The notes beneath the pieces are model-generated. The model was not told the origin of the DNA. It did not search any database and saw nothing but the letters and a program-made list of their open reading frames with translations. A DNA stretch of 32,000 nucleotides. It comes from Candidatus Saccharimonadota bacterium. GTDB taxonomy: Bacteria > Patescibacteriota > Gracilibacteria > BD1-5 > UBA6164. The translations under genes and the position numbers were made by a program. How positions within the stretch are numbered: position 1 is the first letter of the stretch; every line of letters starts with the position of its first letter. The stretch spans positions 330,001 to 362,000 of the forward strand of contig OZ245768.1 in NCBI GenBank assembly GCA_965227835.1. The letters are read 5' to 3'. Shown piece after piece: positions 1,807-31,445 of this stretch.

Positions 1807-2382
1807 TTATCCTAAATTACCAGCAACATATTCCCAGTTAACTATATTCCACAAAGCATTTATATAAGATTTTCTATCATTTCTATAATCTATATAATAT
1901 GAATGTTCCCATATATCAAAACCAAGCAAAGCATTTTTTCATTCTTTCAATAGATTTCATGCATCATCGGTATTAACTACTTCTAAATCTCATTTTGAAT
2001 TTTCAGCTAACCAAGTCCAACCAGAACCAAAATTTTTCAAAGCTTTTTCGCAAAAAGATTCTTTAAATCCATCAAAACTTCAAAAATTAGAGTTTATTTT
2101 ATCTAAAAGTATTCAGCTTGGTTCTCATCAACCATCAGGAGAAAAACAATTCCAATAAAGGTTATGGTTCCATATTTGAGCCGCATTGTTAAAAACTGCT
2201 CAATCAGAATCTTTAACTACTGACTCTAAATCATCATTATCAAAATCACTTCAAACAGTTAAGTTATTCAAATTATCTACATAAGTTTTATGGTGTTTTC
2301 AATAATGAAAATCTATAGTTTCCTTTGAAATATAAGGTTCCAAAGCATTTCTTTCATAAGGTAAATCTATTAGTTTAAACAT
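1807..2382 (-). CDS. sodB: Fe-type superoxide dismutase
   Basis: 192 codons. The translation [86 protein letters not shown] is collinear with E. coli SodB over its full length. 10 of 17 Gly codons are TGA, and each falls on a Gly that is conserved in SodB. Confidence 0.95.
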
Positions 2383-2528
2383 AGGTTTTATAGTTATATT
2401 ATAAATTCAAATCAATATTATATGAAAATAACAAAATTTAAAATAATTTTTGAAAAAAACATATTTTTATATAAAATCCTTGACAAAATTTTCTATTTAA
2501 AATCCAAACTAAAAACATCATAAATCTT

Positions 2529-3932
2529 ATGTTCAAAAAGAAAAAACTTCCCGAGAAAAAAAACTGAAATAACTATATAGTAACACTATTTTGAATTTTT
2601 ATTATTTTCCTTGTTTTTATTTTAGCAATAACTACTTTAAGTTTTGCTAAAAAAATTAACTTTTCTCAAATTTATTCCAAAAATACACAAAAATCTGATA
2701 ATTCTTTGTATACTAAAAAGAAAGACGATAAAATAAATATATTAATTTTGGGTAGATGATGAAGTAAAAACGATGCTCCAAATTTGACAGATAGTATTAT
2801 TTTAGCATCTATAAACAAGAAAAATAAATTAGTTTCTATGTTTTCAATTCCTAGAGATTTATATGTGGAATACAAAAATTGAGACTCTGGAAAAATAAAC
2901 AAACTATATGCTGTTTTTAAGTATAAATCTTGAGATTCTAAAGAATGAATAAATGCACTCAAATATAATGTGGAATTATTAACATGAGAAAGTATAGATT
3001 ATTATGTTAATATAGATTTTGCTGGTTTTATTAAACTTATTGATTCTATATGATGAATAAAAATTACATTAGAAGAAAATTTTGTGGATAATAAGTTTCC
3101 AGATGATAACTGGGGTTGGAGAACCTTTTTTATAAAAAAATGAACTTGGACTCTTGACTGAGAAACAGCTTTAAATTATGCTAGAAGTAGACACTCTACA
3201 AGTGATTTTGATAGAAGTCTTAGGCAACAACAAATTATAAAATCTATTAAAGATAAGATACTGGAATGAGGTCTTTTTTCTAAAATATCAAAAGCAAAAA
3301 AGACTTATGAGATTTTTTCTAAATACATAGACACAGATATTAAATTCAATGATATATTTGAAATAATTGAAGATGTATGAAAAAATAACTACAAAATTAT
3401 TTCCTCAAATTTAAATGACTCTTGTTTTGAATGAGATCCTTTATGTATAAAATGATGATTTCTTTATGTTCCAGAAAGAGAGTTTTATTGATGAGAATCT
3501 GTTTTATTGGTAAATTGATCGGATATAAACAATATAAACTATTATGATAATTTGAAAAAATATCTATCAATTGTTTTTGATAAAACTACCATATACGAAG
3601 AAAATATAAATATATCTGTTTTAAATTCTACAAATGTACCTCTTTTAGCTTGAAACCTTTGATTTTTACTTAGAAAATATTGATTTAACATACCTTTTAA
3701 TAAATACTCTATATCAAATATAAGAGGAAATACATTTGATACAAGCTTTATAAACTACAAAGAAGAAATAAAAGACTCTCCTACTATATCTTTCCTAAAG
3801 GAAAATCTCATATGATTTGATTTCTTTGAAAAACAAGACTTAGAATATAGCCTAGATAAAAATGCATTAATAGAAATAATTATTTGAGAAAACTACCCTG
3901 AACTTATTTATGAAATAGAAAATAATCTTTAA
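2529..3932 (+). CDS. LytR-CpsA-Psr (LCP) family cell-envelope glycopolymer transferase with a LytR_C-like tail
   Basis: 468 codons, checked for TAA/TAG. It has an N-terminal TM helix. Recognisable motifs are INILILGRGGSKNDAPNLTDSIILASIN...SIPRDLYV...GKINKLYA...IDYYVNIDFAGFIKLIDSIGGIKI...LDGETALNYARSRHSTSDFDRSLRQQQII. Confidence 0.9.
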
Positions 3933-4089
3933 AAGGATTTATATTTTTTACTAGAAATTAAAAAATTCTTCAGCCTTTCTTTAATTTCACAGCTATTTCC
4001 AACACCGTTACATCTTCCTAACACTTTTATTTCCTCTAAATTATTTGAACTGTAGGGGACACTTATTTAAATTCAAACATTAAAAAGCT

Positions 4090-7029
4090 ATGTTTAAAAA
4101 AAGAAAAATATTAAATAGAAAAAGAACATTTTCTTCTAAAAAATATTATAACAAAAGAAGTAAGAAACCATTTAGAATATTCAAGTGGTTATTGTTTCTT
4201 TTTGTATCTTTTGTTCTTTTTTCTTTTATCTTATCAGCAATATTATACAAAAAATATATAGAACCATTACCACCCGTAGAAGAAATAAAAAATATGGATA
4301 TAGCACAAACTTCCATAATTTATGACAAGTATTGAGATGAACTTTATAAAATATTTAAAGAAAACAGAACATATATAGATTATAAAGACATAAACAAAAA
4401 TATAATAAATGCTCTAGTTGCTTGAGAAGATCAAAGATTTTGGACTACACCATGATTTGATCTAATTTGAATAATTAGAGCGACTCTCAACTGATTAATA
4501 AGCTGAGATTTTAGATGAACATCTTGATTGTCTCAACAATTAATGAAAGTAACATATTTGACAAATGAAAGAACTTTAGAAAGAAAAATAAAAGAATTTT
4601 ATTTGTCATGGAAACTAAATAAAGTATTTGATAAACAAAAAATAATAGAACTATACCTAAACAAGATATTTTTTTGATCCAATGCATACTGAATAGAACA
4701 AGCAGCCAAAACATTTTTTTGAGTAAGTGCATCAGACTTATGAATACTGCAATCAAGTGTACTAGCTTCTCTACCCAAAGCTCCTTCATGACTTTCTCCA
4801 TATATGCACAAAGATAGACTTATGGGATACCCTTTCATTTTCAATATAAATCAACAAGAAGATAAAACTAAAATACTAAACCAAAAAGACATAGAAGAAA
4901 ACAAAATATTTCTATACAAACTTATAAAATTTATAGAAAATCTAGAAATAAAAAAAGTAAACAATCTAGCACTTATATGCAATATTGATAAAAGTCAGCT
5001 AAAACCATGAAGCTTTAGAGTTGACTCTGATTCTTGCTCTAGTATGTGATTTGAAGATTTACTAGGTTTTCTTAACTCCATAAGAATAAAAGATTGAGAT
5101 TATTTTATGGAATATCAAACATGAAGAAAAGACTATATACTTGGAAGAATGCTTGAAGATGAATATATAGATTTTGATAATTACAAAAAAGCTATAATTG
5201 ATAGCTTTGGCTTTGAATTCCAGAAATACAGAACAAACATTAAAAATCCACATTTTGTAATGTATATAAAGGAATATTTAGAAAAAAAATATGGCAAAGA
5301 AATTATAGAACAATGAGGTTTTAGAATATACACTACTCTAGATCCAGATTTACAAGAAAAGGCAGAAGAGATAGTTGAAAAATACTGAGAAATAAATGAG
5401 ACAAAATTTTGAGCTAGAAATGCAGCTCTCATAAGTTTAGACAATGAAACTTGATGAGTATTGGCAATGGTTTGATGAAGAGATTATTTTGATGAAGAAA
5501 ATGATTGAAATAACAATATGACAACTTCTAGACTACAACCATGAAGTACATTTAAACCATTTGTATATTGATTGGCTATAGAAAATAACAATATATGATC
5601 AGCTACACCTATATATGATCTACAAACTGAATTTCCATGAGATTATATTCCAAACAATTTTGATGGTGAATTTCAATGAAAAATGACTGTAAGCTCAGCT
5701 CTTAATAATTCTAGAAATATACCTGCCATAAAGATGTTTTATTTAGCATGATGAGAGGAAAAAATAATATCTTTTATGGAAAAACTAGGAGTAAAAACAC
5801 TTAGAGAATTCAAAGAAGAATACAAAGAAAAATATCCATGAAGAATTTATGTATATGCTGCTCCTATGGCACTTTGAACTGGTCTTATGACTCCTCTAGA
5901 GCTAGCTAGTGCTTATTCTACATTTGCCAATATGTGAATAAGGAAAGAAGTAAATCCAATAATAAGAATAGTTGATAGAAAATGAAATGTAATAGAAGAT
6001 ATAGAAAGACAAAAAGATGAAAAATCTGAAGATACAGTTATAGAACCTTCTCTAGCATATATTATAAACTCTATATTAAGTGATGAAAAATCAAGACCAG
6101 AGTTTTGGAACAACTATCTTAGTATACCTTGAAGGAAACTTGCATCAAAAACTTGAACTTCAACCAAACAATATACACAAGGCACAGAAAAGATAATAGC
6201 CCCTAGAAACCTCTGGACAGCTTGATATACTCCTCAAATTACAACCGTTAGTTGGGTTTGAAATACAAACTGAGAAGAGTTGTTCTTAAACTGAAACTGA
6301 CTTGAAGCAGCTTGACCTATTATGAAAGATTTTATGGAATATGCCCATGAATGAAAGAAAGTATCATCTTGGTCTAGACCTCTTTGAGTTGAAAATTTAA
6401 AAATTTCTTCTATATCTTGACTTCTACCTTGAGAATGATTTCCCTCCAATTTTCTAACAGAATCAAATTTTATAAATCCTCCTGTATCTTTTGATAATAG
6501 TTTAAAATTTGTAGAGGTGGATAGACTTTGTTTTTGAAAAGTCACAAAAAATACCCCAGTAGAAGCTATAAGGAGATGATATTTAGTTAATTTCCGTTCT
6601 ATAAATCCAGATAATCCTATGTGGGAAGAGCCTGTTTTGCAATGGGTAAATGATTGAGAATACAAAGAAAAATATTCAAAATTTTGAAATGTCATTACTT
6701 ATTACAGTTGAAAAGTTTGTTCTAGAAACTGAAAAGTAAATATAGTTACAAAAACTTCAATAGAGGATTCTAAACTTACAATAGGGAGAAATGACATAAA
6801 AGTATGATATGTAGCTGGTAGAAATATAAGAAAAATGGATATATATTTATGAAATAAGCTTTTAAAAAGTATTGATAATATAAATACATCTCAAAAGTGA
6901 TTTGATGTTGCTTTGTTTGTACCTTTTAATTTACTTTGAACAAAAGCCAATTTAAAAATTAGACTGGTTGATTCTCAATATTATTACTATGATAAGGATA
7001 TATATGTTGATGTAGTTAGTAGAGGTTAG
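4090..7029 (+). CDS. ponA: class A penicillin-binding protein (bifunctional glycosyltransferase/transpeptidase, PBP1A family)
   Basis: 980 codons, and every line was checked for TAA/TAG. GT51 motifs are EDQRFWTTPGFDLIGIIRA, SQQL and RKIKEFYLSWKL..K..IIELYLNKIFFGSNAYGIEQAAKTFFG. Transpeptidase motifs are RLQPGSTFKPFVY (SxxK), SRN and KTGTS. Confidence 0.95.
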
Positions 7030-11809: not shown

Positions 11810-13774
11810 ATGATAAATACAAAAAAAGCATTTTCTTTTATAGAGTTGCTTATAGTTCTTAGTATAATAGTAATACTTGCTGTTATTTGAATGAATATGT
11901 TTGATGATAATAAAAGAAAAGCAAGTAATGCAAAAATAGAAACTGGAGTAGAAACTATAAAAAATAGTCTTTTTGTTTATATGGAAGAAAATAAAAAGCT
12001 TCCAAACCCGGGTTGAAACAACAATTATTTTGAGGTTGATTCATCGTATTCTTACTCTTGAAGTTCGCAATCTTTTTGAGTTTATGGTTCTTTTACACAA
12101 GATAGCCTAAGCAAAAAATATTTAGATACACTTCCTCTTGATCCTATTTCAAATCATTATTTTTCATATGGTAAAACTCTTGATAATACTTATTTTGAGA
12201 TAGCTTCTGTTTTGAGACTTGAAGAAGAATCTCAAACTAAGCTTGATTGAAACTATCCTTGAGAATACGGACCAATAAGTCTTATAAGAGAATATAACTG
12301 ACCTTTTTTTGTATCTGATTGAAGCAAAGAGCATTTACCTTATAATCCAGATGAACATATAATAACAGCAAAAATAGGAGATATACAGTGAATAGTTTCT
12401 ATTAATGGTATTGAAGTTTCATGAACTAAGCATTTAAAAACATGAGATCAGATAATATCATCAAGCTCTTGAAGTGCCAATATATATTTTTCAGATTGAA
12501 GTGTTTCTTATTTGGAAGAAAATTCTAACTTAGTTTTATCAGAAATGTCTTACAAAAACAGTGAAGATAATCTACTTACAAAAATTTCTTTATATCTAGG
12601 TAAATGATCCCTTTTCACAAAAGCTACATCCCTTAATTCTTGATCTGATTTTGAAATATATACTGCTGATACTACTGCTGCTGTAAGATGAACTATTTTT
12701 AACGTTAGTGTTAATGATAATAATGAAGGTACTTTGATTGAAGTTTTAGAATGAAGTGTAGAAGTATATGAGGCTCCAGAAATAGAGTTAGAAGATGATG
12801 TAGAGAATAATTCTAAGCCAAAAAAATTAGAAATAAAAAATTCTAGAGGGAATATAAAAGCTTGAAAAAAAGTAACACTTGAAAAAGAAAGTAATGATAA
12901 TTCGGGAGAAATTAATGTAGATGATATTGATGAAAGTAAAGAAGAAGAATTTAAAGAAAAATTAAATAAGGATAAGGAGAAAAACTCTAGGAATTTGGCA
13001 ATAGGTAAGAGTGAAGATGAGATAAATGAAGGTAATTGTAAATTGAATTTTGAAGGATTAGGATGTGTGGATGATGAAAACTCACTTATTGATTCTTGAT
13101 GGGAATTGTATTGATATGCTCCTTATAATGAAGCTTGAGATTTAAGTATGTACAGTGAGGATTGAAAATTTAAGATTGATAATCAATTAACTACAAATTC
13201 ATTATATTTATCAAATAAATGTAATAATCTTTCTAGTGAAACAACAAATGTCTTCTGTGATGTAAAAGATTCTAACATAAAATGAGTTTATATAGGTTGA
13301 AATGATAGTTTTATAAAATATGAAAATTTAAACCTTAATTGAGACTTTTTGATAGAAATGAATGTTAGATGAGATTCTTTGAAAGGATTAGAGGTTAAAT
13401 ATTTTCTTGATAGTAATGTTTTTAAGTTTTTTAGGAAAACAATTTCTTCAGAAAGTCATTTATTATTTAATAGTTCAGGGAAAATCTTAAAATCAATTTC
13501 AAATACTACTGATATTACCAATGATCAATTTTATAAATTAAAAATAACTCGTGAAAATACTGAATCTGAATTAACTTTAGAATATGAAGGATGAAATGTT
13601 TTATTAGTATGATATACTGATGATGATAATAATAAAAATAAAATCGGAACGGGAAGTATTTCAGATTTATATATTTGAAATAGAAAGGTTTGATCTAGTA
13701 ATAAAAATTGAAAATATCCAATCAATAGTATAATTGATTATGTAAAAATATATAAAAAATTGGATAGTGAGTAG
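11810..13774 (+). CDS. large type IV pilin-like (prepilin N-terminal methylation motif) protein with FecR-like and LamG/ConA-like modules
   Basis: 655 codons. The N-terminus MINTKKA-FSFIELLIVLSIIVILAVIG is a class III signal with the conserved Glu5. The middle region GDQIISSSSGSANIYFSDGSVSYLEENSNLVL...AAVRGTIFNVSV...IEVLEGSVEVY is FecR-like. The C-terminus GDFLIEMNVRG...FYKLKITRE...LYIGNR...IDYVKIY is LamG-like. Domain calls rest on motif pattern. Confidence 0.8.
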
Positions 13775-14156: not shown

Positions 14157-17100
14157 CTAATCATCATTATCATAAATTTGAATAATTTGTACCCCGTTTG
14201 ATGATGCAGAATCTGTTATTTCAGCTGTTATATACCGTCAACTTGTCCATCCTATATCAGGTGTAAAAGTTATATCTTTTAGAGTATTTCATGTTCCTGT
14301 AGATTGACTAAATATTCATAAAAGAGGGTTATTATCAGTATGATAAACATTTGAATATTTAAGTTCCCAAGTTACTTTTGATAAATCATCATCAGCTATA
14401 TCCAATCATATATTTGTCAGCTCACTACCTATTTCAAGATGACCATCTACAGTAATTCATGAAATTACTGGATCTGTATTTGTAGTAATTTCTCTTTCTA
14501 GGGTTGTTTTCTCCATTTCTCCATTTTCTCAATTCATTGAATCTACCAATATATATAACACATAAGTTACACCTGAGCTTAATCAAGTTTTAGTAATACT
14601 AGCACAGGTAGCAGAAGAAAAAGGTATATAATCTAAATCAGTAGGACTTACTCATTTTTCAAGTATAGCATAACTACAGCTTTGTAGAGATGGATTATCA
14701 CTATCTAGAGAAGCAGTAGCAGTAAAAGTGATACTATTATTATCAGAACTTACATTAGTTAGAGTAATAGTAGGGACATCATTTTCCAATATTTCAAAAC
14801 TATGTTCTAGAGTTTTAGAGTTTTCTGGGTTTTCTCATCAAATAGTTCAAGTTAAAGTAGCTTCGAATTTATAATTTCCTTTAGTTAAATTAAATTGTTT
14901 TAAATCAAAATCTGAAGAAACAGAGCTTTGTATATTTCAAGAATGATTTCAATTATAGATTGCATTTCAGTTATTATCATAAACTACCCAGCTATAAGTC
15001 CAAGTTCAGTCGTTATCTATTCAAGTAATAGAAAGTATTTGAGAATCCTCACTAACTCAAAATTGATTTTCACCAGAAATACTTCAAGAAATAGGAGAAT
15101 CATCATCTAAATCAGTAACAGTACATGTTATTTTTATTTGTTCATTAGCTTTCTTACCCAAAGAATCAACAACTTCAAAATAAGCTTCAAAACTTGTTGT
15201 TTGATCTAAACTAGGGAAACTACAAACTAATTCTCAAGTTACAGAATCAAAAGTCATATTATCTGGTAAATTTCAAACAGGGGTAAAGCTAATAGAATGA
15301 TTTTCAGGATCTGACACATAATCATTTAAATTTATAGATTGATCATTTGATCATTCATCTCAAGTTAAAGTTATATCTGAGTTACTAATTTCGGGAGCAT
15401 TGTTGATTTGAGTACTTATTTCTTGATTTATTATAGTATATTCTGTATTTCAAGTTATACCATTTTTTGATTTTACTCTTGTGTAAATCACATAGTTAGT
15501 ACCTGAATTTAATCAAGTTTTAGTAATACTATCACAAGTAGCAGAAGAGAATGCAGTATAATCTGAATCACTAGGATTTATTCAACTCTCTACTACTGCA
15601 TATTCACAAGTTTGCAATGAAGAGTTATCATTATCACTATCTATAGAAGCATTAGCAGTAAAAGAGATACTATTAATATCAGAACTTACATTAGTTAGAG
15701 TAATAGTAGGGACATCATTTTCTAATATTTCAAAACTATGTTCTAAAGTTTTAGAGTTTTCTGGGTTTTCTCATCAAATAGTTCAAGTTAAAACAGCTTC
15801 GAATTTATAATTTCCTTTAGTTAAATTAAATTGTTTTAAATCAAAATCTGAAGAAACAGAGCTTTGTATACTTCAAGAATGATTTCAACTATAGACTGCA
15901 TTTCAACTATTATCATAGATTTTCCAGCTATAAGTCCAAGTTCAGTCGTTATCTATTCAAGTAATAGAAAGTATTTGAGAATCCTCACTAACTCAAAATT
16001 GATTTTCACCAGAAATACTTCAAGAAATAGGAGAATCATCATCTAAATCAGTAACAGTACATGTTATTTTTATTTGTTCATTAGCTTTCTTACCCAAAGA
16101 ATCAACAACTTCAAAATAAGCTTCAAAACTTGTTGTTTGATCTAAATTAGGGAAACTACAAACTAATTCTCAAGTTACAGAATCAAAAGTCATATTACTA
16201 GGTAGACTTCAAACTAAATTAAAGCTAATAGAATGATTTTCAGGATCTGACACATAGTCATTTAAATTTATTGATTGGTTCTCTGATCATTCATCTCAAG
16301 TTAAAGTTATTTCTGAATTACTTACTTCGGGAGCATTGTTTGTATTTGTAGTAATTTCTCTTTCTAGGGTTGTTTTTTCCATTTCTCCACTTTCTCAATT
16401 TACTGAATCTACCGATATATATAACACATAAGTTACACCTGAACTTAATCAAGTTTTAGTAATACTATCACAGGTAGCAGAAGAAAAAGGTATATAATCT
16501 AAATCAGTAGGACTTACTCATTTTTCAAGTATAGCATAACTACAGCTTTGCATTGAGGGATTATCACTATCTAGAGAAGCAGTGGCAGTAAAAGAGATAC
16601 TATTATTATCAGAACTTACATTAGTTAATGTAATAGTAGGGACATCATTTTCTAATATTTCAAAACTATGTTCTAAAGTTTTAGAGTTTTCTGGGTTTTC
16701 TCATCAAATAGTTCAAGTTAAAACAGCTTCGAATTTATAATTTCCTTTAGTTAAATTAAATTGTTTTAAATCAAAATCTGAAGAAACAGAGCTTTGTATA
16801 CTTCAAGAATGATTTCAACTATAGACTGCATTTCAATTATTATCATAAATTACCCAGCTATAATTCCAAGTTCAGTCGTTATCTATTCAAGTAATAGAAA
16901 GTATTTGAGAATCCTCACTAACTCAAAATTGATTTTCACCAGAAATACTTCAAGAAATAGGAGAATCATCATCTAAATCAGTAACAGTGCATGTTATTTT
17001 TATTTGTTCATTAGCTTCTTTTCACTCAGAATCTGCTACTTTGAAATAAATTTCATAGCTAGTTGTTTTATCTAAACTAGGATAAATACATGTTACTATT

Positions 17101-17435
17101 CATGTTTTTTCATCAAAAGTCATATTATCTGGTAAATTTCAAACAGGGGTAAAGCTAATAGAATGATTTTCAGGATCTGACACGTAATCATTTAAATTTA
17201 TAGATTGATCATTTGATCACTCTTCTCAAGTTAAAGTTATCTCGGGAGTACTAATTTTAGGAGCATTATTTGATACATTATTTGAAGAATTTTCAGAGCC
17301 TCCTCCTCATCAAGATTCGCAAGAAGCTAGTATTAAAGATAATACTGATACTACAATACTTCCTCTAAAGCTAGGAATTTTTTTACTTTTTAACTTTTTA
17401 TCACCATTGATATATCCTATATTTTCTCTTATCAT
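14157..17435 (-). CDS. large surface lipoprotein, adhesin-like, with three tandem ~311-aa repeats (Ig/cadherin-like + PKD-like + FN3-like modules)
   Basis: 1093 codons. Both ends were translated and the length is divisible by 3. The N-terminus is ...SIVVSVLSLILASC-ESGGGGGS (lipobox). Repeats contain INLNDYVSDPENHSISF...LP.NMTFD..TG (putative-Ig type), DDDSPISGSISG...GIDNDGTW.YSW, and an FN3-like segment. The C-terminus ends ...VQIIQIYDNDD. Confidence 0.85.
14476..17270 (-). repeat. three tandem in-frame DNA repeats of 930-936 bp inside the adhesin-like gene
   Basis: Antisense shadow ORFs recur at 14928, 15864 and 16794, giving periods of 936 and 930 nt. Stretches longer than 100 nt are identical in all three copies, and other segments occur as two alternative variants. 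Confidence 0.9.
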
Positions 17436-22421: not shown

Positions 22422-23501
22422 TTATTTGATTGTATATTTTCAAGATGAGTTTTTGTATATAACTCATGATATTTCCATCATAGATATTTTGTTGCTGATT
22501 TCTGTTATACCTATATTTATTTTTTTATTTATATCGTCTATATTTAAATCTTCTAATAGTAGTAAATCATATATTTCTTTTTCTCATTTTTCCAACTTTA
22601 ATTCCTTTTCACTATTTTTATTTTCACTTGTGTGTTGATTTGATATATTGTACTCTTCTAATATATCTTTATCTGTTATAACCAGTTTAGCCTCTCATTT
22701 TTTTATAAGACTATTTGTTCATAGGCTTCATATTTTAAATATATCTCATGGGATACAAAATATATCTTTTCACATTTCAAGAGCTAGATTTGCCGTAATT
22801 AAAGTTCATGATTTTTCTTTTGCTTCTACTATGAGTATTCACTTGGATATTCAGGCTATTATTTCATTTCTTATAGGAAAATTATGTGGATTTCAAATCT
22901 CTCAAATAGGAAATATAGATATTACTGCTCATCAAGAGTTTACTATCCTATCAAAAAGTTTTTTGTTTGATGCGGGATAATCTATATCTATTCAGGTTCA
23001 TATTATACTTATAGTTTTTTTGTTATTTTTCAGCGTTTCAATATGTGCTTTTGAATCACATCATGAAGCTCATCCAGAAACTATAGAGAAATAGTTTGAA
23101 ACTCAAGGTATTATTTTCTCTAAAATCTTTTCTCAATAAAAAGACATATTTCTAGAGCCTATAACTGCTATTTTTGGAGAATTATCTATATATCATCTCA
23201 AATAAAATAAAAAAGGAGGGTTAGATATATTTTTCAAGTTATCTGGGTAGTTTTTATCAAAAATAGTAATTATTTTTACTTTTCTTTCTTTTAGTATAGA
23301 TTTTAGGTTTTCCAAATTGATTTTTTTGTATTTTTCTAAAATACTTTCTATTTGTTTTTCTTTAAAATCTTCTTTTTTCAAAAATTTTTGATTTATTGAG
23401 TTAAATACCTCTTTATAATTTTCTTTATTTTTAAATATTTTATGTAGTTTTCTTTGAGATATTCATATATGGTGTAGTCAAACTAAATATATTTCTTCCA
23501 T
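22422..23501 (-). CDS. dprA: DNA processing protein A (natural transformation)
   Basis: 360 codons. Motifs are YPDNLKNISNPPFLFYLRG, IAVIGSRNMSFYG, VSGGASGCDSKAH, IIGTGIDIDYP, NFPIRNEIIAGISKGILIVEA..KSGTLITANLALEMGKDIF, and a C-terminal winged-helix-like tail. Confidence 0.9.
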
Positions 23502-23644: not shown

Positions 23645-25291
23645 ATGAGCAATAAACCTTACAGTGATATAATGATTGTAGAAAATCAACTAGATCAAAG
23701 ATCTTATTTATCAGATGTTATTTATGATATTTCTGATGAATTTCCTCATCTTGCTATGAATTCCAAAGATGCCATAAATCAACTAGATTTAATCGTGTCA
23801 AAAAATAGAGGTATTGTAAAAGTGCTTACTGATTTGCATATGTGAGATACTTGAGAAGATTGAAACAATGGAGATTTTTTAATACAAAAAATTTCTGAAA
23901 ATAAAGACTTAAATGAAAAAATACATCTTGCTATACTTAGTTGAAGTATATCTGAAGATGCAATTTTAGAAGTGATTAAAAGGAATTATTGAAAACTAAC
24001 TATAGATTGGATACCTAAAAGTCTTATGTTTGAAAGAAATAAATTTAGAGATAGAATTCTTGAATTTTTAAGTAGTGAGCATAAACCTCTTAAAGAATGA
24101 ACTTCAGAAATTATTTTATCAATCAAAGAACAACTTACAGAAATAACTGATATATCTATAAAATTAGAGCCTTTGTTTTGGAAATTAAAAAGAATTATAT
24201 ATCAAATGAGTGTAGAAGATCCTTTGTGTATAGAATTAAAAAGTATCATTGATAGTATTGATATTAAATCAGTCTCTTGAAGAGAAGTACATGAATTTAA
24301 AAATACCCTATCTAATTTTATTTTAAGAAATAGTGAAGCCCTTGATTGAAAAATAGTTGAGTCTTTGCATGAAATAAGACTTAGTTTAAAAACTATATCA
24401 GATTCAGAGATTTTGAAACAAGCTTTTATATCAGATTTATTACCTTCTCATCAAGATATGTTCAAAGAAAAATTTAGCTGACTTTTTGTTTCTGCTTCAA
24501 ATATGGCTAATATACAGACTCTACTTATAGAGATAATAAACAATATGCAAAAATATTGATATGATCACAGTATAGAAGTATGAGAAAAAAATATAGTATT
24601 TAGGAATAAAATTAAAGATTTTGATGGGACAAATAATTCTGAATGATATGGAATAAATATGATGAAGGATATGTGTAGTGAGGATTCAAACTTATCAATA
24701 GATTATAATATTTCAAATGAAGGTATTTTTGAATTAAAATTTTCTTTTCCTTTTTTTAGAGAAAATAATGAATCAGATGAATCATCGAATGAAAATCAAG
24801 GACTTCAAGAATCAAAAGAGTATCAATGAAATGAATTTGAAAAGATATATTTTTTTGATCATGATTTTTGATCGAGAGTCAATTTAGAAAAAGTAAGAAA
24901 AGTATTTAATTGTTTTCCAAAAGATAGAATACAAGAAAGTAATATTGACATAATAGAAAAACCTTTCAATCTAACTGATAATATTCAAGAGCACAGTCTT
25001 TTTATAACACATAACTTCAGTTATTCTTGAAGTTCATCTGAAATGTATGTTTATAATTTATTAATCAGTTTAATAGAAAATCCTAATCTAAAAATTCTAG
25101 TTTTGTCAGGTATTTCATGCTTTGATAAATGTATTTCAAATGCAAATATTTTTATGGCTTTTCTTAGATTAACTTCTTCTTACCCTGAATCATCAAAATC
25201 CTATGATTTTGATGAGGTTAAATCAATTATCAAAAATAGAATATTTTATTCCAATTCTATGGATGATATTCCTGAAGAACTAAAAAGTTAG
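23645..25291 (+). CDS. two-component hybrid protein: N-terminal receiver (REC) domain plus histidine-kinase-like ATPase (GHKL) domain
   Basis: 549 codons. The REC pattern is IMIVEN...KVLTDLHMGDTGEDG...LAILSGS...DWIPKS. The GHKL N-box is LLIEIINNMQKYG, the G1-like box is KDFDGTNN and the G2-like box is EGYGINMMKDM, followed by GIFELKFSFPF. A possible second receiver-like fold lies at the C-terminus (KILVLSG...). No convincing H-box was seen. Confidence 0.65.
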
Positions 25292-25409: not shown

Positions 25410-28400
25410 ATGAAACTAAACCAAAAAAAACAATATTGAGAAAATTGGCTAGAACGTTTATACTGAGACTCACCATATAGCTTATATAAATTAATAAGTC
25501 AAACAAAAAAATATGCAAAATACAATATTACTGGTGATTTTTCGTGAGAATCATCAGAAGATTTATATGAAAAAAATTTAAAAGCAAAAGAAATAATAGA
25601 TAGTAAAATTCAAAAAATAAGAGATAATATTTCAGATATATGGAGGCCCTATGAGCTTATATTGGATAAGTCAGGAGAGAAAATTCATTTATTTCTCCCT
25701 TTGAAACTAGTAAAGATTATAGAAAAATATAGGCATTTTATACAAAAGCATCCAAATTTATTAGATACCTTGATAAACCCTCAAAACTATAGTGAATATG
25801 ATGTTTTGGAAATTATTATGCAATTACCAGAAAATGATCCAGAAGTAAAAAGGTTTCATTACTCTTGTATGAAATATGGTTTCACAAATAATTTAATTAC
25901 AGAAATAATTGATACCCCTGTTTTTGAGGTAAGTTCTTATTTTTGAAGATTTATACCAAAACCCCAACATTTTTCTGATGATATTAATATGAAAAATGTT
26001 AATGAAAATACAGTTAGATTATATACAAATGGTGTTGAAGACATTAAAAATGCTTTTTTAGATAGATTTTGAACTAAAAAAGAATTTTGATATGGTAGGT
26101 CAGCTTGGGATGAAGATTCAATTTATTATCTTAATTCAGCCCTTTCAAACCCTTATACAAATGTAGAAGATATAAGAGCTCAACAACTACTTTTTGAACA
26201 CTTCAATATTCCACAATTATCAAATTATTCAAATATTCTTTCTCAAGTTGAAAAGTATGTAGAAAATTTTCGAAAACTTCTATATCCTGCAAAAATTTGA
26301 CTTTGTTTTCATAATTATGAAGGGTATAGTGTTTTTGATATGTATCATGATAATATTACCATATATAAACCATATAATTATTCTTCTTTACTTGATTATG
26401 AAGGGGATGGAGATCCTGATTGAGTAAATGAATACTTGATTAAAAGATATGGAGATAATGTAAATATAAAACAAGTACTTTTAGATGGTTTATCTGATTT
26501 AAAAAATGCAAAAGAATTATTAGAATTATTTTTTGAAAAATTAGAGATTATATGATCTCCAATTTTGACTGATTTAAAATTAGAATCAAGAAAATTTTTT
26601 AAATATTACGATCACAGATTTCTATTTAGACCAAGATTATGGAAGTGATGAACTACAGTAATACATGATGATGATTATTTTTGTCGTAATTTAGAGTCAC
26701 CCATCCCTAATTTTATCAAAGAGTTTGAAAATTTTCAAACAAACCTTAAAGCACTTAATGCTATGTTTAAATTTTTAAATCTTGTACAAAAAGAATGATG
26801 GTCAAAAATAACTTTTGATAATTCAAAACCCACATGATATAAAAATGCATGGCATTTAAAATTTGATAAATCAAATCATACCCTTTGAAGTATTTCTCAC
26901 ACTAGTGAAATTACTATATTTGCTGGTTCAAATGCTTCGGGAAAATCTTTTTCTTGATTAAAGAGAGATGCTTATATACGTATGGCTATGCAATCTTTTT
27001 GATATGCTCCATGTGATTCATGAAACCTAAATACTCCTATTTCATCTATACTTTTTTTAGATAGACCCTATACAAAGTCCATCAAAAAACATCACTTTGG
27101 ATATAACGAAGTTAAAACTTTGTATGATCCAAGTGCATTTATGCAAGAGGCAAAATCTATAGCAGATTCTCTTAAATTTCTAACTAGTAAAAGTGTAGTA
27201 TATATGGATGAAGTATTTACTACCACTAGCCCAGAAGATCAAGCAGCTTTATTGCTATGACTTATAGAATATTTAAAAGAGAAATGAGCAGAAATAATAC
27301 TTGCAACTCATAACGAGTATGTTTTGAAATATTTTGATTCAATGAATAATAAATTTAAGGCTAATATAATGCATTTTTGAACTAAGAAATGAAATTCTTG
27401 AATAGAAAATACTTATAAGCTAGAATTTGGTAGTTCAGATTCAAACTTTTTAAGTGTATGCTATCAATATCAAGCACCTATATGTTTAACAGAAACAGCA
27501 CAAAGATATTTAGAGTGAACATGGAAACTTTCAGAACAAAGAAACTTATTAACTAGACCTGTATTGGAATATACTCAAAAGGAACGAGAGAAAATGAAGC
27601 AAATTTCAATTTCAATCATGCATTTATTTCAAGAAGCAGACTCAAAAAGTATCCTGAAACTTTATTCTCAAGATGACAGTATTCAATCTTGGATGAATTT
27701 TGAAAGTCTATATTTAAACAAAAATAATATATTAAATATTAGAAACAATAAAAAACCAAACCATAATATGTTTGATGAAATGATGAATGACACAAGATAT
27801 TATTCTCTTCTTACAAAACTTCTCCTTAATACATCATTTAATTCTAGTCAAGAAACCCTAGAAAGACAAACTATGTTTTCAGAACTACAAAAGATTTCAA
27901 AAAAAGATTATATAACAATATTTAATTCTTTAGAGTTTTTATGAGGCTTTGATTCTTCTCTTGAAACTCTTGAAGAAATAGATAATGATGTATGAATTAA
28001 TAGATATTTACCTAAATATTCAAATATAAAAACTACTGATTCTAACCTATCATGATGAAAAAAAATACCCACCATGGATATTAGTTTGTGAAATTTATGA
28101 GAGATTCAAAATTGTATTGAACTTAATACTCTTATTTTTTGAGAAAAAGCTCCAGAATCATCTCATATAACAAGTCTTTTAAATGTACTTTTTAAAATTC
28201 AATCATATAAAAGTCTAGATTTAGAATATATATATAATGGAGAGGATAAACAATATTATAAGATTCCATGAGCTATCTTACCACATTTATTAAAAATAAT
28301 TCCTCAAAGATATATACCTAAAGATACCAGCAAAGAAAGAATAAAAGAACAAAGGAAATCTATAGAAAACTTAAAAAAGGATTTAATATCACAATGAATT

Positions 28401-29768
28401 CTAGAAAAAAATGAATTTCTTACAGATAATGAATTAAAAGAGTTATTTTATCAAAATTTTGTACCTAGGGAAATATTAAGGAAATTATTTATGGATATTA
28501 TTCCAGAAGATAAATCATATGAGATAATAGTAAATCTTATGGATGATTTTGAAACAAAACTAAAAGAATATATAGATTCTCTTCCTATTATACCATGGCA
28601 AAAAATTATCACAAATCAAGATAAAAGAGTAAAAGAATTTATATTTAAAATACAATTTAAAAAAATAAAAAAAGCTAAAGAGAAAACTAATGAACTAAAT
28701 AAATTATCAAGAAAAAATCCTTGGTTATCATTGTATTATGTTAGTGAATTTCCAAAGGAATTAAAATTACTTGAGAAAAGATTTGAACATATAGATTCTG
28801 TATATATAAGTCAATCATTTAATACTTTAAATGATATTTCTATTAGGATACAAAATTGAGATTTTGAATATCTAAAATATTCACCTTTGAAAGAAAATAC
28901 TTGATGAGAATATTCTACTCTTTCACGTTTATGAAAAGCTAAAACTACTTATATAACACATAACGATATAGATTCTAAAAATAATTTGAAATCTACGGGT
29001 CAGATTAGTATAGAAACGCTTTGATTAAAAAGTATATTATATTGGTCAAGAGTTATTAAATGATTTTGATTTTGAAAAGTTCGTTTTTCTTCCAAAAATC
29101 AAGTTAAATTTGATAGATTATCTCATTTAAGTCTACTATGAGATAAAACTGTAGCAAATGATGTTCATATTTGATGATTAAGTGGTCAATTAAGAGTACT
29201 AACCTGACCTAACGGTTCAGGAAAAACTTTTCATAAACAGTCAATTATATTAGGTATAATGTCTGCAATGAGTACTTGATTTGTTCCAGCAAAAAATTCT
29301 CGTTTACCTTTGTTTGAAAGAGTATCATACCTTGATAGAGTTGTAGAAGATAGTAAGCAATGATTTAGTGCTTGAACAAAAGAGATACAATACTGGAAGG
29401 AAATATGGCAAGATATAGATTATTCTACTGTGCCTTTTATGTGATTTGATGAGATGTTTTCCACTACTTCTCCTAAATATCAAGAGGCTTTTACAGTTAG
29501 TGTAATGGATTTTTTATATAAAAAATGAGTGTTAGGAGTTATCTCCACACATAATCATGATGCTATTGGTGTACTTAAAAATCAAAACGGTATTTTTCCT
29601 CCATACTATTTTGAATACCATATAAAGGGGGGTAAACTTACTTATGAAAGAACTATTACTAAGTGACATGCTACTTCACATTGAATTGATATAGCTCGTA
29701 AGATGTGATTAAATAATACTATTATTGATAAGGCTATAAAATATAGAAATATTATAAATAGGAATTAG
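25410..29768 (+). CDS. 1452-aa protein with two tandem MutS-family (domain V type) ABC ATPase modules
   Basis: A single frame runs from ATG 25410 to TAG 29766-29768. Most of that frame was read triplet by triplet and no TAA/TAG was seen. The three track ORFs 25662, 27564 and 28491 share this frame and are separated only by TGA. Module 1 has Walker A GSNASGKS (26925-26948), SAFMQE, Walker B VVYMDEVFTTTS (27195-) and ATHN. Module 2 has Walker A GPNGSGKT (29205-29228), Walker B FMGFDEMFSTTS (29436-), STHN and KGHATSHGIDIARKMGL. Confidence 0.8.
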
Positions 29769-29931: not shown

Positions 29932-30216
29932 ATGGAAACTAATAAACTATTTGTTTGAGGTTTATCTTGGGGACTAGCTTGGCAAGATCTAAAAGATGCT
30001 TTTTCAAAACACTGAGAAGTTGTATTTGCAAGAGTAGTTACTGATAGGGAAACTTGAAGATCTAGAGGTTTTTGATTCGTAGAATTCTCTTCTGTTGAAG
30101 ATGCAGTTAAAGCAAAAGAAGCTATGGACTGAACAGAACTTGATTGAAGAAGTATCAAAGTTGATTTCGCTCAAGATAAAAGAGAAGAAACACAAGAACA
30201 AAAAGAAGAAAGTTAG
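29932..30216 (+). CDS. RRM-type RNA-binding protein
   Basis: 95 codons. RNP-2 is LFVGGL and RNP-1 is RGFGFVEF: METNKLFVGGLSWGLAWQDLKDAFSKHGEV...TGRSRGFGFVEFSSVEDA.... Confidence 0.9.
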
Positions 30217-30335: not shown

Positions 30336-31445
30336 ATGACAAGTAAAGAATTAATAAACTATGTCCTTGATTATTCATCAAAAAAGAAATATCCAGATAT
30401 ACATATAAATACCAATAAAAAAATAAAAATTAGAAATGAATCAGGTTTTATAGTAGATTTGGATAAAATAGAAGTAGAATCCAAAGAAGTTTCAATTCCA
30501 GAAATAAATCTAGAAACTGTTAAATCCATAATAAAAGTTTTAGTTTGAGAAGACTGATATGAAAAATTTCAAACAAATAAAGAACTAGATTCTTCATATG
30601 TAATAAATTCATGAGAAAGATTTAGAGTGAACTGCTATATTGATTCTGCTTGATATTCCATAGCTCTTAGAATAATACCAAATAAAATACCAGATTTAGA
30701 CGAACTTGGTTTATGAGATCAAATAAAAAAAATGTGTGATTCTCAAAAAGGTTTGATTTTAGTTACTTGACCCACTTGATCTGGTAAATCTACAAACTTA
30801 GCCTCAATGATAGACTATATAAACAAAACCCAAAATAAACATATTATCACAATAGAAGATCCAGTTGAATTTTCTTTCAAAGATAATAAATCTTTAATAA
30901 ACCAAAGAGAAGTTTGAAATCATACAAAAAGTTTTGCCAATGCAATTAGAGCAAGTCTTAGAGAAGATCCAGATGTAATAATGATATGAGAAATGAGAGA
31001 TCCAGAAACCATAAAAGCAGCTATAACCCTAGCCGAAACGGGACATTTAGTACTATCTACTCTTCATACAAATGATTCTGTTCAAACTGTTGATAGAATA
31101 GTTGATGTCTTCCCTGAATCTTCACAAAAACAAATAAGAATGCAACTTGCTATGAGTTTATCATGAATAATTTCACAAAGATTAGTATCTAGGAAAGACA
31201 AAGAAGGTAGAATTGCAGCTAGAGAAATACTTATAACAAATGATGCTGTAAAAAATTTGATAATTTCAGGAAAAACTCATCAACTCTATTCAGTTTTGGA
31301 AGTTTCTAAAGCCGAATGAATGGTTCTTATGGATAAATATTTAATTGCTCTTTTCAAAAAAGAAATTATAAGCAAAGATTCTTTGATTTCATATTCCAGA
31401 GATAAAGAAGCTATAGAAATGATGTTTAAAGATAACCTTGGCTAG
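30336..31445 (+). CDS. pilT: type IV pilus retraction ATPase
   Basis: 370 codons. Motifs are the Walker [24 protein letters not shown], the Asp box, the Walker [22 protein letters not shown] and the PilT-type [11 protein letters not shown]. Confidence 0.95.

Follow-up and report, generated by a model that had tools for sequence, protein, structure and literature searches.

MutS2 is a homodimer of single-module chains, each with a helical core/lever, a domain V ATPase, and C-terminal KOW and Smr domains, and without the mismatch-binding domains I and II. On the MutS1 side, the eukaryotic MSH heterodimers (MSH2-MSH6, MSH2-MSH3, MSH4-MSH5) consist of two diverged paralogous subunits with domains I-V (MSH4-MSH5 being without domain I), which are separate polypeptides and form an asymmetric dimer whose ATP sites are not equivalent. 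Among prokaryotes, the uncharacterised subfamilies MutS3A/B and MutS4A/B comprise little besides the ATPase (MutSac) domain, sometimes together with the core; the gene for MutS4A adjoins that for MutS4B, the stop codon of one overlapping the start codon of the other (Lin, Nei & Ma 2007, PMC2190696). Here, we report a 1452-amino acid (aa) protein, termed tandem MutS, in which two MutS-type modules are carried by one chain. It is encoded at 25410-29768 on the + strand of a 32,000-nucleotide (nt) stretch of DNA, which is called the window (contig OZ245768.1, positions 330,001 to 362,000, of a Candidatus Saccharimonadota bacterium placed in the Gracilibacteria by GTDB).

Tandem MutS resembles MutS2 in being without domains I and II and in apparently combining a helical core/lever with a domain V ATPase, and it differs in having two modules in one chain and neither KOW nor Smr. 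With the MSH heterodimers, whose chains are among the top structural matches of our models, it shares two diverged halves; the difference is that these are fused, with shortened helical regions and without domains I, II, and IV. MutS3A/B and MutS4A/B are the nearest published precedent, i.e., paralogue pairs of which MutS4A/MutS4B is one step short of fusion, but they are two genes and occur in other taxa (a few bacteria, Thermoplasma, Ferroplasma), whereas tandem MutS is one open reading frame (ORF) with a conserved linker. Two nucleotide-binding domains fused and paired within one chain are known from UvrA, ABC-F/ABCE1, and full-length ATP-binding cassette (ABC) transporters, where asymmetric sites are possible; these belong to other ABC clades without the MutS core/lever or the domain V helix-turn-helix (HTH), and the likeness is architectural, not familial. 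Taken on its sequence, tandem MutS appears to belong to a separate branch of the MutS superfamily that has not been described before; MutS3, MutS4, MutS5, MutS7, and MutS8 were considered through their published descriptions (PMC2190696 and PMC11275761).

Domain architecture and reading frame

The Pfam family MutS_V (PF00488) matches the protein twice, at aa 503-700 (48.1 bits, E 1.8e-12) and at aa 1263-1445 (51.5 bits, E 1.6e-13), both above the gathering cut-off of 30.2 bits and both spanning profile positions 2-183 of 188. Aligned to each other, the two halves are 23% identical (E = 2e-12). Each module carries the Walker A motif GxxxxGK[ST], the S-x-F-x-x-E signature, the Walker B motif hhhhDE, the (T)H H-loop, and a C-terminal HTH, and the protein ends about 7 aa past the HTH of the second domain V. 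The features of the gene are as follows.

25410..29768, + strand: whole gene, 1452-aa tandem MutS-like protein, code 25, 52 TGA codons read as Gly, stop included
25410..26144, + strand: N-terminal region, aa 1-245, a poorly conserved and partly lineage-specific extension without a Pfam match, mostly gaps or unaligned against homologues
26145..26915, + strand: module 1 helical core/lever, aa 246-502, opening with the conserved P..(D)I..RQ motif (aa 248-262)
26916..27509, + strand: module 1 ATPase (MutS domain V), aa 503-700, with Walker A GSNASGKS (26925-26948), signature PSAFMQE (27129-27152), Walker B VVYMDE (27195-27212), H-loop ATHN (27300-27317), and HTH (27429-27515)
27510..27809, + strand: inter-module linker, aa 701-800, with conserved ERE..K and S.D.(D)F motifs
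27810..29195, + strand: module 2 helical core/lever, aa 801-1262, with E-R-Q at aa 818-820 ('ETLERQTMFSEL'), DSVY at aa 1129-1132, and target-specific insertions
29196..29744, + strand: module 2 ATPase (MutS domain V), aa 1263-1445, with Walker A GPNGSGKT (29205-29228, first G encoded by TGA), signature FSAGTKE (29364-29387), Walker B FMGFDE (29436-29453), H-loop STHNH (29541-29561), and HTH (29664-29744)

The catalytic residues of both modules are strongly conserved. In the module 1 ATPase, G511, K512, D600, E601, and H634 are invariant in 37 homologues; in the module 2 ATPase, G1271, K1272, D1347, H1381, and H1383 are invariant and E1348 is nearly so. Across 37-65 homologues, the G-K of both Walker A motifs, the D-E of the module 1 Walker B, the D of the module 2 Walker B, and the His of both H-loops are invariant, and the signature Ser and the Ser/Ala of the HTH, an element which mediates dimer contacts in MutS, are nearly invariant. 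Both ATP sites look intact and apparently competent. Outside the ATPase domains, P248, R258, and Q259 of the module 1 helical region are nearly invariant, as are E818 and Q820 of the module 2 helical region, in which R819 and S1130 are invariant; EILERQxMF and DSVYLHQ.AN are further conserved stretches of the latter region. The linker keeps R726, K730, S753, and D755. A 13-aa insertion ahead of the module 1 signature is peculiar to this protein.

No Pfam match to MutS_I, MutS_II, MutS_IV, Smr, HNH, or any other domain was found in aa 1-480 or 720-1210, and the MutS1 hallmarks PF01624 (domain I), PF05188, and PF05190 and the KOW domain were likewise not recognised by Pfam in the protein. MutS_V is matched in 37 of the 37 homologues; MutS_III is matched in two of the 37 and not in the protein studied here. 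A preliminary description made from the DNA letters had proposed one uninterrupted table-25 frame of 1452 aa with two MutS-type ATPase modules (PF00488 expected twice), whole Walker A and Walker B motifs in both, and no mismatch-binding domain I, Smr, or HNH, placing the protein in neither MutS1 nor MutS2. All of this is borne out here: the frame by translation and its length free of TAA and TAG, the two modules and the absence of the other domains by Pfam, every quoted motif by its position, and the separation from MutS1 and MutS2 by the profile scores given below.

Read with table 25 or table 4, 25410-29768 is one frame of 1452 sense codons closed by a TAG/TAA stop. Given the base composition, a run of 1452 codons lacking both TAA and TAG would arise by chance with a probability of about 1e-45. 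Under table 11, the same stretch contains 53 stops, 52 of them in-frame TGA. TGA is read as Gly, not Trp, in this code 25 genome, as is supported independently by conserved Gly columns, by codon usage, and by the RNP1 motif of a neighbouring RNA recognition motif (RRM) gene. When the 52 TGA positions are compared with nine standard-code homologues, Gly occupies 130 of the 405 aligned residues (32%, with a background of 5.7%) and Trp only 1.7%; at aa 531, 664, 1266, 1290, and 1419, all nine homologues have Gly. The TGA at nt 29205-29207 encodes the first G of the module 2 Walker A, T[G]PNGSGKT, and the RNP1 glycines (RGFGF) of the RRM gene are TGA-encoded as well. The window has a G+C content of 25.6% with in-frame TGA in nearly all long ORFs; its 18 genes all terminate with TAA or TAG, and in them TGA is the majority Gly codon (375 TGA vs 171 GGN). 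Code 25 is not known outside Absconditabacteria (SR1) and Gracilibacteria. An identical protein is present in the public collection as a table-4 translation (P0001, from a 1,489,121-bp contig) with Trp at the 52 Gly sites. In public pipelines, code-25 genes like this one are shattered or invisible under table 11 and carry Trp for Gly under table 4.

Family relationships and predicted structure

We searched 1.84 billion cluster representatives exhaustively with phmmer, taking the last 1200 aa of the protein as the query, and obtained 374 matches at E<=1e-3, of which 140 reach E<=1e-10 and 71 reach E<=1e-30. Of the 149 best-scoring representatives other than the protein itself, 109 have a length of 1000 aa or more (98 of 1000-1700 aa and 11 larger), and most of these representatives are matched in two stretches corresponding to module 1 and module 2. 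The family alignment is collinear from the 'P..I..RQ' helix ahead of module 1 through the C-terminus. Most members come from standard-code genomes and are unbroken table-11 ORFs there, as in Roizmanbacteria (L001, 1175 aa), Levybacteria (L002, 1191 aa), Saccharibacteria (L003, 1260 aa), a metagenome-assembled genome (MAG) labelled Burkholderiales (L004), Peribacteraceae, a Margulisiibacteriota MAG, and metagenome loci. Recoded members (P0021, P0060, P0092, P0099, P0115, and P0135) were seen as Trp-rich table-4 translations. A locus search with a narrow alignment gave 4 genome loci, 17 metagenome loci, and no true viral ones, the target's own genome not being among them. Please note that word-index similarity searches, whether with the single protein or with a 37-sequence profile, returned the self match and canonical MutS1 only; the index misses the family.

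The fusion is genuine and ancient: it is collinear in about 100 cluster representatives, most of them from standard-code genomes, and this conservation makes read mapping at the module junction superfluous. The preliminary description was right that this is one real fused gene. Its claim of novelty fared only in part: the architecture is common in bacteria of the Candidate Phyla Radiation (CPR) and not unique, but it is unnamed, and no description of a tandem or fused MutS was found in literature that included new MutS subfamilies and MutS in CPR. The database name is "hypothetical protein" for members from Margulisiibacteriota (MFA4905074.1), ACD (EKD28818.1), and Peribacteraceae (MDD5041279.1) and for IMG entries; a mutS-type name was met once (EKE30215.1), the recoded P0135 being called 'DNA mismatch repair protein mutS' in NCBI and UniRef. 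Tandem MutS belongs to a large, conserved, and widespread family centred on CPR bacteria, as yet unnamed and unstudied.

The ATPase domains were compared by mean pairwise phmmer bits over segments of about 245 aa (M1 and M2 stand for the two modules), as listed here.

Within module: M1-M1 110; M2-M2 122
Between modules: M1-M2 61
Module and MutS1: M1-MutS1 37; M2-MutS1 32
Module and MutS2: M1-MutS2 27; M2-MutS2 34
Reference pair: MutS1-MutS2 64

By these scores, the two ATPase modules are each other's nearest relatives, i.e., paralogues that go back to a duplication no later than the family's base, and the family is farther from MutS1 and MutS2 than MutS1 is from MutS2. The closeness of M1 and M2 together with the distance from MutS1 and MutS2 argues for a MutS subfamily of its own whose modules arose by an ancient duplication within the gene. 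Profile comparison with hhalign is in keeping with this order: the M1 and M2 ATPase profiles align at a probability of 100% (E 3.5e-68), and either module aligns with MutS1 or MutS2 domain V at 99.8-99.9% (E 1e-28 to 1e-31). The helical regions are far more diverged than the ATPase domains. Those of module 1 and module 2 align at 91% (E 9e-7) over the ERQ helix; that of module 1 aligns with the start of MutS1 domain III (the 'PL.d...I..R...v..l' helix) at 52% (E 1.4e-4), and that of module 2 gives a weak but collinear alignment with MutS1 domains III-IV (E 0.022).

Scores against the NCBIfam equivalog models are far from the cut-offs. The mutS1 models (TIGR01070 and NF003810) score 28.9-48.8 bits vs cut-offs of 641.7 and 480, and mutS2 (TIGR01069) scores 37.9 and 64 bits vs a cut-off of 400, the 64 bits being the best NCBIfam match of all. 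The nearest non-family matches identified in the exhaustive search are MutS2 proteins, and the true MutS2 matches (P0145 and P0150-P0155) bear the HGxG Smr tail. Among PDB sequences, module 2 matches MutS2 and Taq MutS (E 1e-8 to 1e-7), with MutS2 as the best match (8qpp_W, E 1e-8).

AlphaFold2 was run on a 1149-aa homologue (P0012) with a family alignment of 60 sequences, which gave a mean predicted local distance difference test (pLDDT) of 89.1 and a predicted template modelling score (pTM) of 0.86. The P0012 model starts with a helical region containing a long hairpin (H188-214/H262-298), followed by ATPase 1 (~300-520) and a linker that is ordered in part; after these come a second, larger helical region, in which long helices are paired (H792-831, 835-855, 882-896, and 903-924) and the tip is disordered, and ATPase 2 (~925-1149). 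The target itself was modelled over aa 253-1452 (pLDDT 76.5, pTM 0.77), with both ATPase lobes above 90 and the insertions at low confidence; the model was made from P0001 with Trp at the 52 Gly positions, which probably lowers its quality. In Foldseek searches of the PDB with both models, all top matches are MutS, MSH2, MSH3, or MSH6 chains (probability 1.0, E to 1e-14), and the alignments span 550-950 columns, well past domain V, which supports a MutS-like helical part in the models. The pTM values for a two-module chain imply a fixed inter-module arrangement, at least as modelled. We infer that this arrangement would be the canonical head-to-tail ATPase dimer, because both signatures and both HTHs are conserved and because MutS and ABC ATPases work in this way. 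The intramolecular pseudo-dimer of the preliminary description, with its lobes putatively paired head to tail, is consistent with confident whole-chain models.

Genomic neighbourhood

The genes nearest to tandem MutS in the window are the following.

22422-23501, - strand: dprA, identified by Pfam
23645..25291, + strand: upstream co-oriented 548-aa gene, function unassigned, outside the conserved unit
29932-30216, + strand: stand-alone RRM_1 gene, 94 aa, eukaryote-type RNA recognition motif (E 5e-25)
30336-31445, + strand: pilT, retraction ATPase, identified by Pfam

Upstream on the opposite strand lie dprA, a tetratricopeptide repeat (TPR) gene, dnaB, and an RNase H gene, DnaB and RNase H being four and five genes off; downstream of the target come the RRM gene, pilT, and a gene for a cyclic nucleotide (cNMP)-binding protein. 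The position between dprA and pilT, noticed earlier, is confirmed by Pfam, with the RRM gene intervening before pilT, and the 118-nt gap to the co-oriented upstream gene also stands. The identification of that 548-aa gene as "REC/HATPase" (response regulator receiver and histidine kinase-type ATPase) is not supported. Searched as three fragments, the gene product matches nothing in Pfam up to E<=10, and it has no PDB sequence match and no PADLOC family; its sole signal is a 17-bit N-terminal likeness to a response regulator in NCBIfam, and no homologue of it adjoins family members elsewhere. Some of its motifs vaguely recall a GHKL ATPase. Since the REC/HATPase assignment is unsupported and the neighbour is not conserved, the suggestion of a "signal-controlled" machine is unsupported too. 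A promoter and terminator scan from the 548-aa gene to the target was uninformative (40 sites vs 39.9 expected).

We surveyed the three genes on either side of family members in 17 informative non-redundant contexts. A gene of DNA replication, recombination, or repair lies within three genes in 11 of the 17: DprA in the window and L003, TopA in L003 and L032, DnaE in L001, UvrA in L014, RuvB in L018/L020, RecA in L019, an AlkZ-like gene in L026, RecG in L028, RecJ in L029, and GyrA in L033. If 4-7% of genes are assumed to belong to the DNA class, the binomial P is ~1e-4 to 1e-2. We regard this enrichment of DNA genes near the family as suggestive. Nothing corresponding to the window's genes for the 548-aa, RRM, and TPR proteins adjoins other surveyed members, and the dprA adjacency recurs once, in Saccharibacteria (L003). 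The DNA-transaction role of the preliminary description is partly supported, by the frequent DNA-metabolism neighbours and by this second dprA, but not by any fixed partner.

Several other observations were made around these loci. A pilT-like fragment lies at 3850-4257 (-) of L022, beside the tandem MutS of the closest recoded relative (P0021) and on the opposite strand from it (E 3.6e-30 to the window's PilT), and may be residual synteny within recoded lineages. In the window, a 654-aa protein at 11810-13774 (+) has a type-IV-prepilin-like N-terminus (FSFIELLIVLSIIVILA) and a FecR domain; with it, pilT, and dprA, components of competence and type-IV pili are dispersed round the locus. A 1092-aa predicted secreted or lipoprotein-like protein at 14157-17435 (-) contains three near-identical repeats of about 330 aa, seen in translation; these repeats of about 1 kb go unreported by TRF, run with a maximum period of 500. 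In L034, an intein-containing GyrA gene is found upstream of the family member, at a distance of two genes.

Possible function and significance

Combining these data, we favour, with moderate confidence, the reading that the protein is a member of a single-chain double-MutS subfamily and acts as an ATP-gated DNA clamp or sensor in recombination or repair, its ATPases being paired intramolecularly. Each unit would consist of a helical core/lever, opening with a MutS domain-III-type 'I..ERQ..l..L' helix, followed by the complete domain V ATPase and the C-terminal HTH, and the two units, which are fused in one polypeptide, would have arisen by an ancient internal duplication. Within the chain, the ATPase domains may pair as the subunits of a MutS or MSH dimer do. 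There would then be two composite ATP sites, with each module contributing its S-x-F signature to the site of the other, and the paired helical levers could form an ATP-gated clamp. Because the protein is without domain I, a structured clamp domain IV, and a nuclease, its role would be that of a sensor, clamp, or remodeller, not of a cutter. The likeliest substrate would be DNA, i.e., recombination or repair intermediates, possibly including DNA acquired by competence, and the protein would presumably work alongside separately encoded partners. No evidence for a MutL partner was found. An ATP-driven DNA clamp in recombination or repair is probably a better description than classic mismatch repair.

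A number of points weigh against this reading. The lever tips are short or disordered in the models and there is no structured clamp domain, so that encirclement of DNA is not evident. The neighbourhood enrichment is post hoc with an assumed background, and no conserved partner gene or operon was found across the surveyed contexts. MutS-type ATPases also have roles away from DNA: MutS2 rescues collided ribosomes, and KamC is the reactivase of a B12 enzyme. The best PDB sequence match is a ribosome-bound MutS2, KamC is weakly matched in NCBIfam by both modules, and the translation genes for EF-P (L029) and Pth (L028) lie near family members. Finally, P0036 (L033/L034, 4001-14107) is a genuine 3368-aa standard-code ORF in which B12-binding, radical SAM, and methyltransferase domains are fused to a tandem MutS.

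The points on ribosomes, KamC, the translation genes, and P0036 make up the case for a MutS-fold ATPase working off DNA, either in ribosome-collision or translation quality control, as MutS2/RqcU does, or as a chaperone or reactivase like KamC, which serves the B12-dependent lysine 5,6-aminomutase. We hold this to be unlikely, though it deserves to be taken seriously. The ribosome-bound MutS2 matched by module 2 is that of B. subtilis (8qpp, 7qv3), but KOW and Smr, the domains tying MutS2 to ribosomes, are both missing here. KamC (NCBIfam NF052383) is likewise a MutS-domain-V-like ATPase; it has a single module, however, its scores of 29 and 56 bits are far under the cut-off of 300 and no better than those of MutS1 and MutS2, and the target has no aminomutase context. 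P0036 also carries about 900 aa of unknown sequence, and among the giant relatives P0036, P0037, and P0043 its fusion is the one that can be interpreted; it is confined to a single lineage, and no homologous radical SAM partner neighbours family members elsewhere. A radical SAM and methyltransferase gene does lie 5.5 kb upstream of the tandem MutS in L026. The radical SAM/B12 contexts and the weak KamC likeness might hint at a non-DNA role; against this, DNA-metabolism genes predominate among the neighbours.

The DNA clamp can also be given a broader form, in which a CPR-wide single-chain MutS clamp polices the recombination of DNA imported through the competence/type-IV-pilus machinery (the DprA/RecA pathway). 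This is a speculative extension, which we rate as rather improbable. If true, the protein would be the sole MutS-type fidelity or anti-recombination factor in lineages without MutS and MutL, such as Saccharibacteria, and there would be an unrecognised DNA-surveillance pathway specific to episymbiotic ultra-small bacteria.

Three further readings are essentially excluded. That tandem MutS is an anti-phage or anti-plasmid defence component, an ABC-type sensor ATPase surveying foreign DNA from a defence island, is very improbable. A Shedu SduA gene lies directly downstream of the family gene in L019 (8792-10045), an MvaI/BcnI restriction-modification pair is near it in L001 (8595-10168), and an anti-Pycsar-like or metallo-beta-lactamase gene is upstream in L033. 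However, PADLOC-DB 2.0 gave no significant match (mads_8 at 18 bits, E 3e-4, and mads_3 at 13 bits only), no effector or nuclease is associated, and the flanks are mostly housekeeping genes (dnaE, topA, recA, ruvB, uvrA, gltX, glmS, efp). The family is also conserved across whole CPR lineages, not patchy, and is absent from 2.9 million viral contigs, in which the sole match was a single-domain MutS in a giant-virus MAG.

Even less credible is a highly diverged form of the organism's canonical MutS1 or MutS2. Domain V is plainly MutS-type, and the automatic name of the recoded relative P0135 points that way, but the equivalog scores, the absence of domains I, II, and IV, Smr, and KOW, the two ATPase modules instead of one, and a module similarity to MutS1 and MutS2 below that between MutS1 and MutS2 all speak against it. 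Ordinary MutS and MutL are reported from Gracilibacteria and Absconditabacteria, whereas Saccharibacteria, among which L003 carries the family, reportedly have neither (PMC8406219); the tandem family occurs in both groups and is therefore not simply a MutS1 replacement. That two adjacent MutS-like genes were merged by misassembly, sequencing error, or a wrong code is barely credible at all: the ORF exists only with TGA as sense, and in L031, a homologue from a metagenome, the modules fall into two ORFs with an overlap of 53 nt (M1 at 91-2334, M2 at 2282-3550), but TGA as Gly is independently backed, the same collinear fusion is an unbroken table-11 ORF in most of the roughly 100 representatives, the linker itself holds conserved motifs, and the L031 split looks like a frameshift error, a natural split version being the alternative.

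Returning to tandem MutS as a single-chain, DNA-directed ATPase, the family would add a distinct, deep-branching subfamily to the MutS superfamily, whose members currently bear the name "hypothetical protein" or the misleading "DNA mismatch repair protein MutS". Among MutS proteins described so far, it is apparently the first to place both partners of the obligate dimer in a single chain, each with its own diverged and seemingly active ATPase site. As a natural single-chain analogue of the MSH heterodimers, it could help to dissect asymmetric ATPase cycles. A conserved gene for a protein of 1150-1500 aa in the tiny genomes of CPR bacteria, which depend on DNA uptake and recombination, is likely to be important there.

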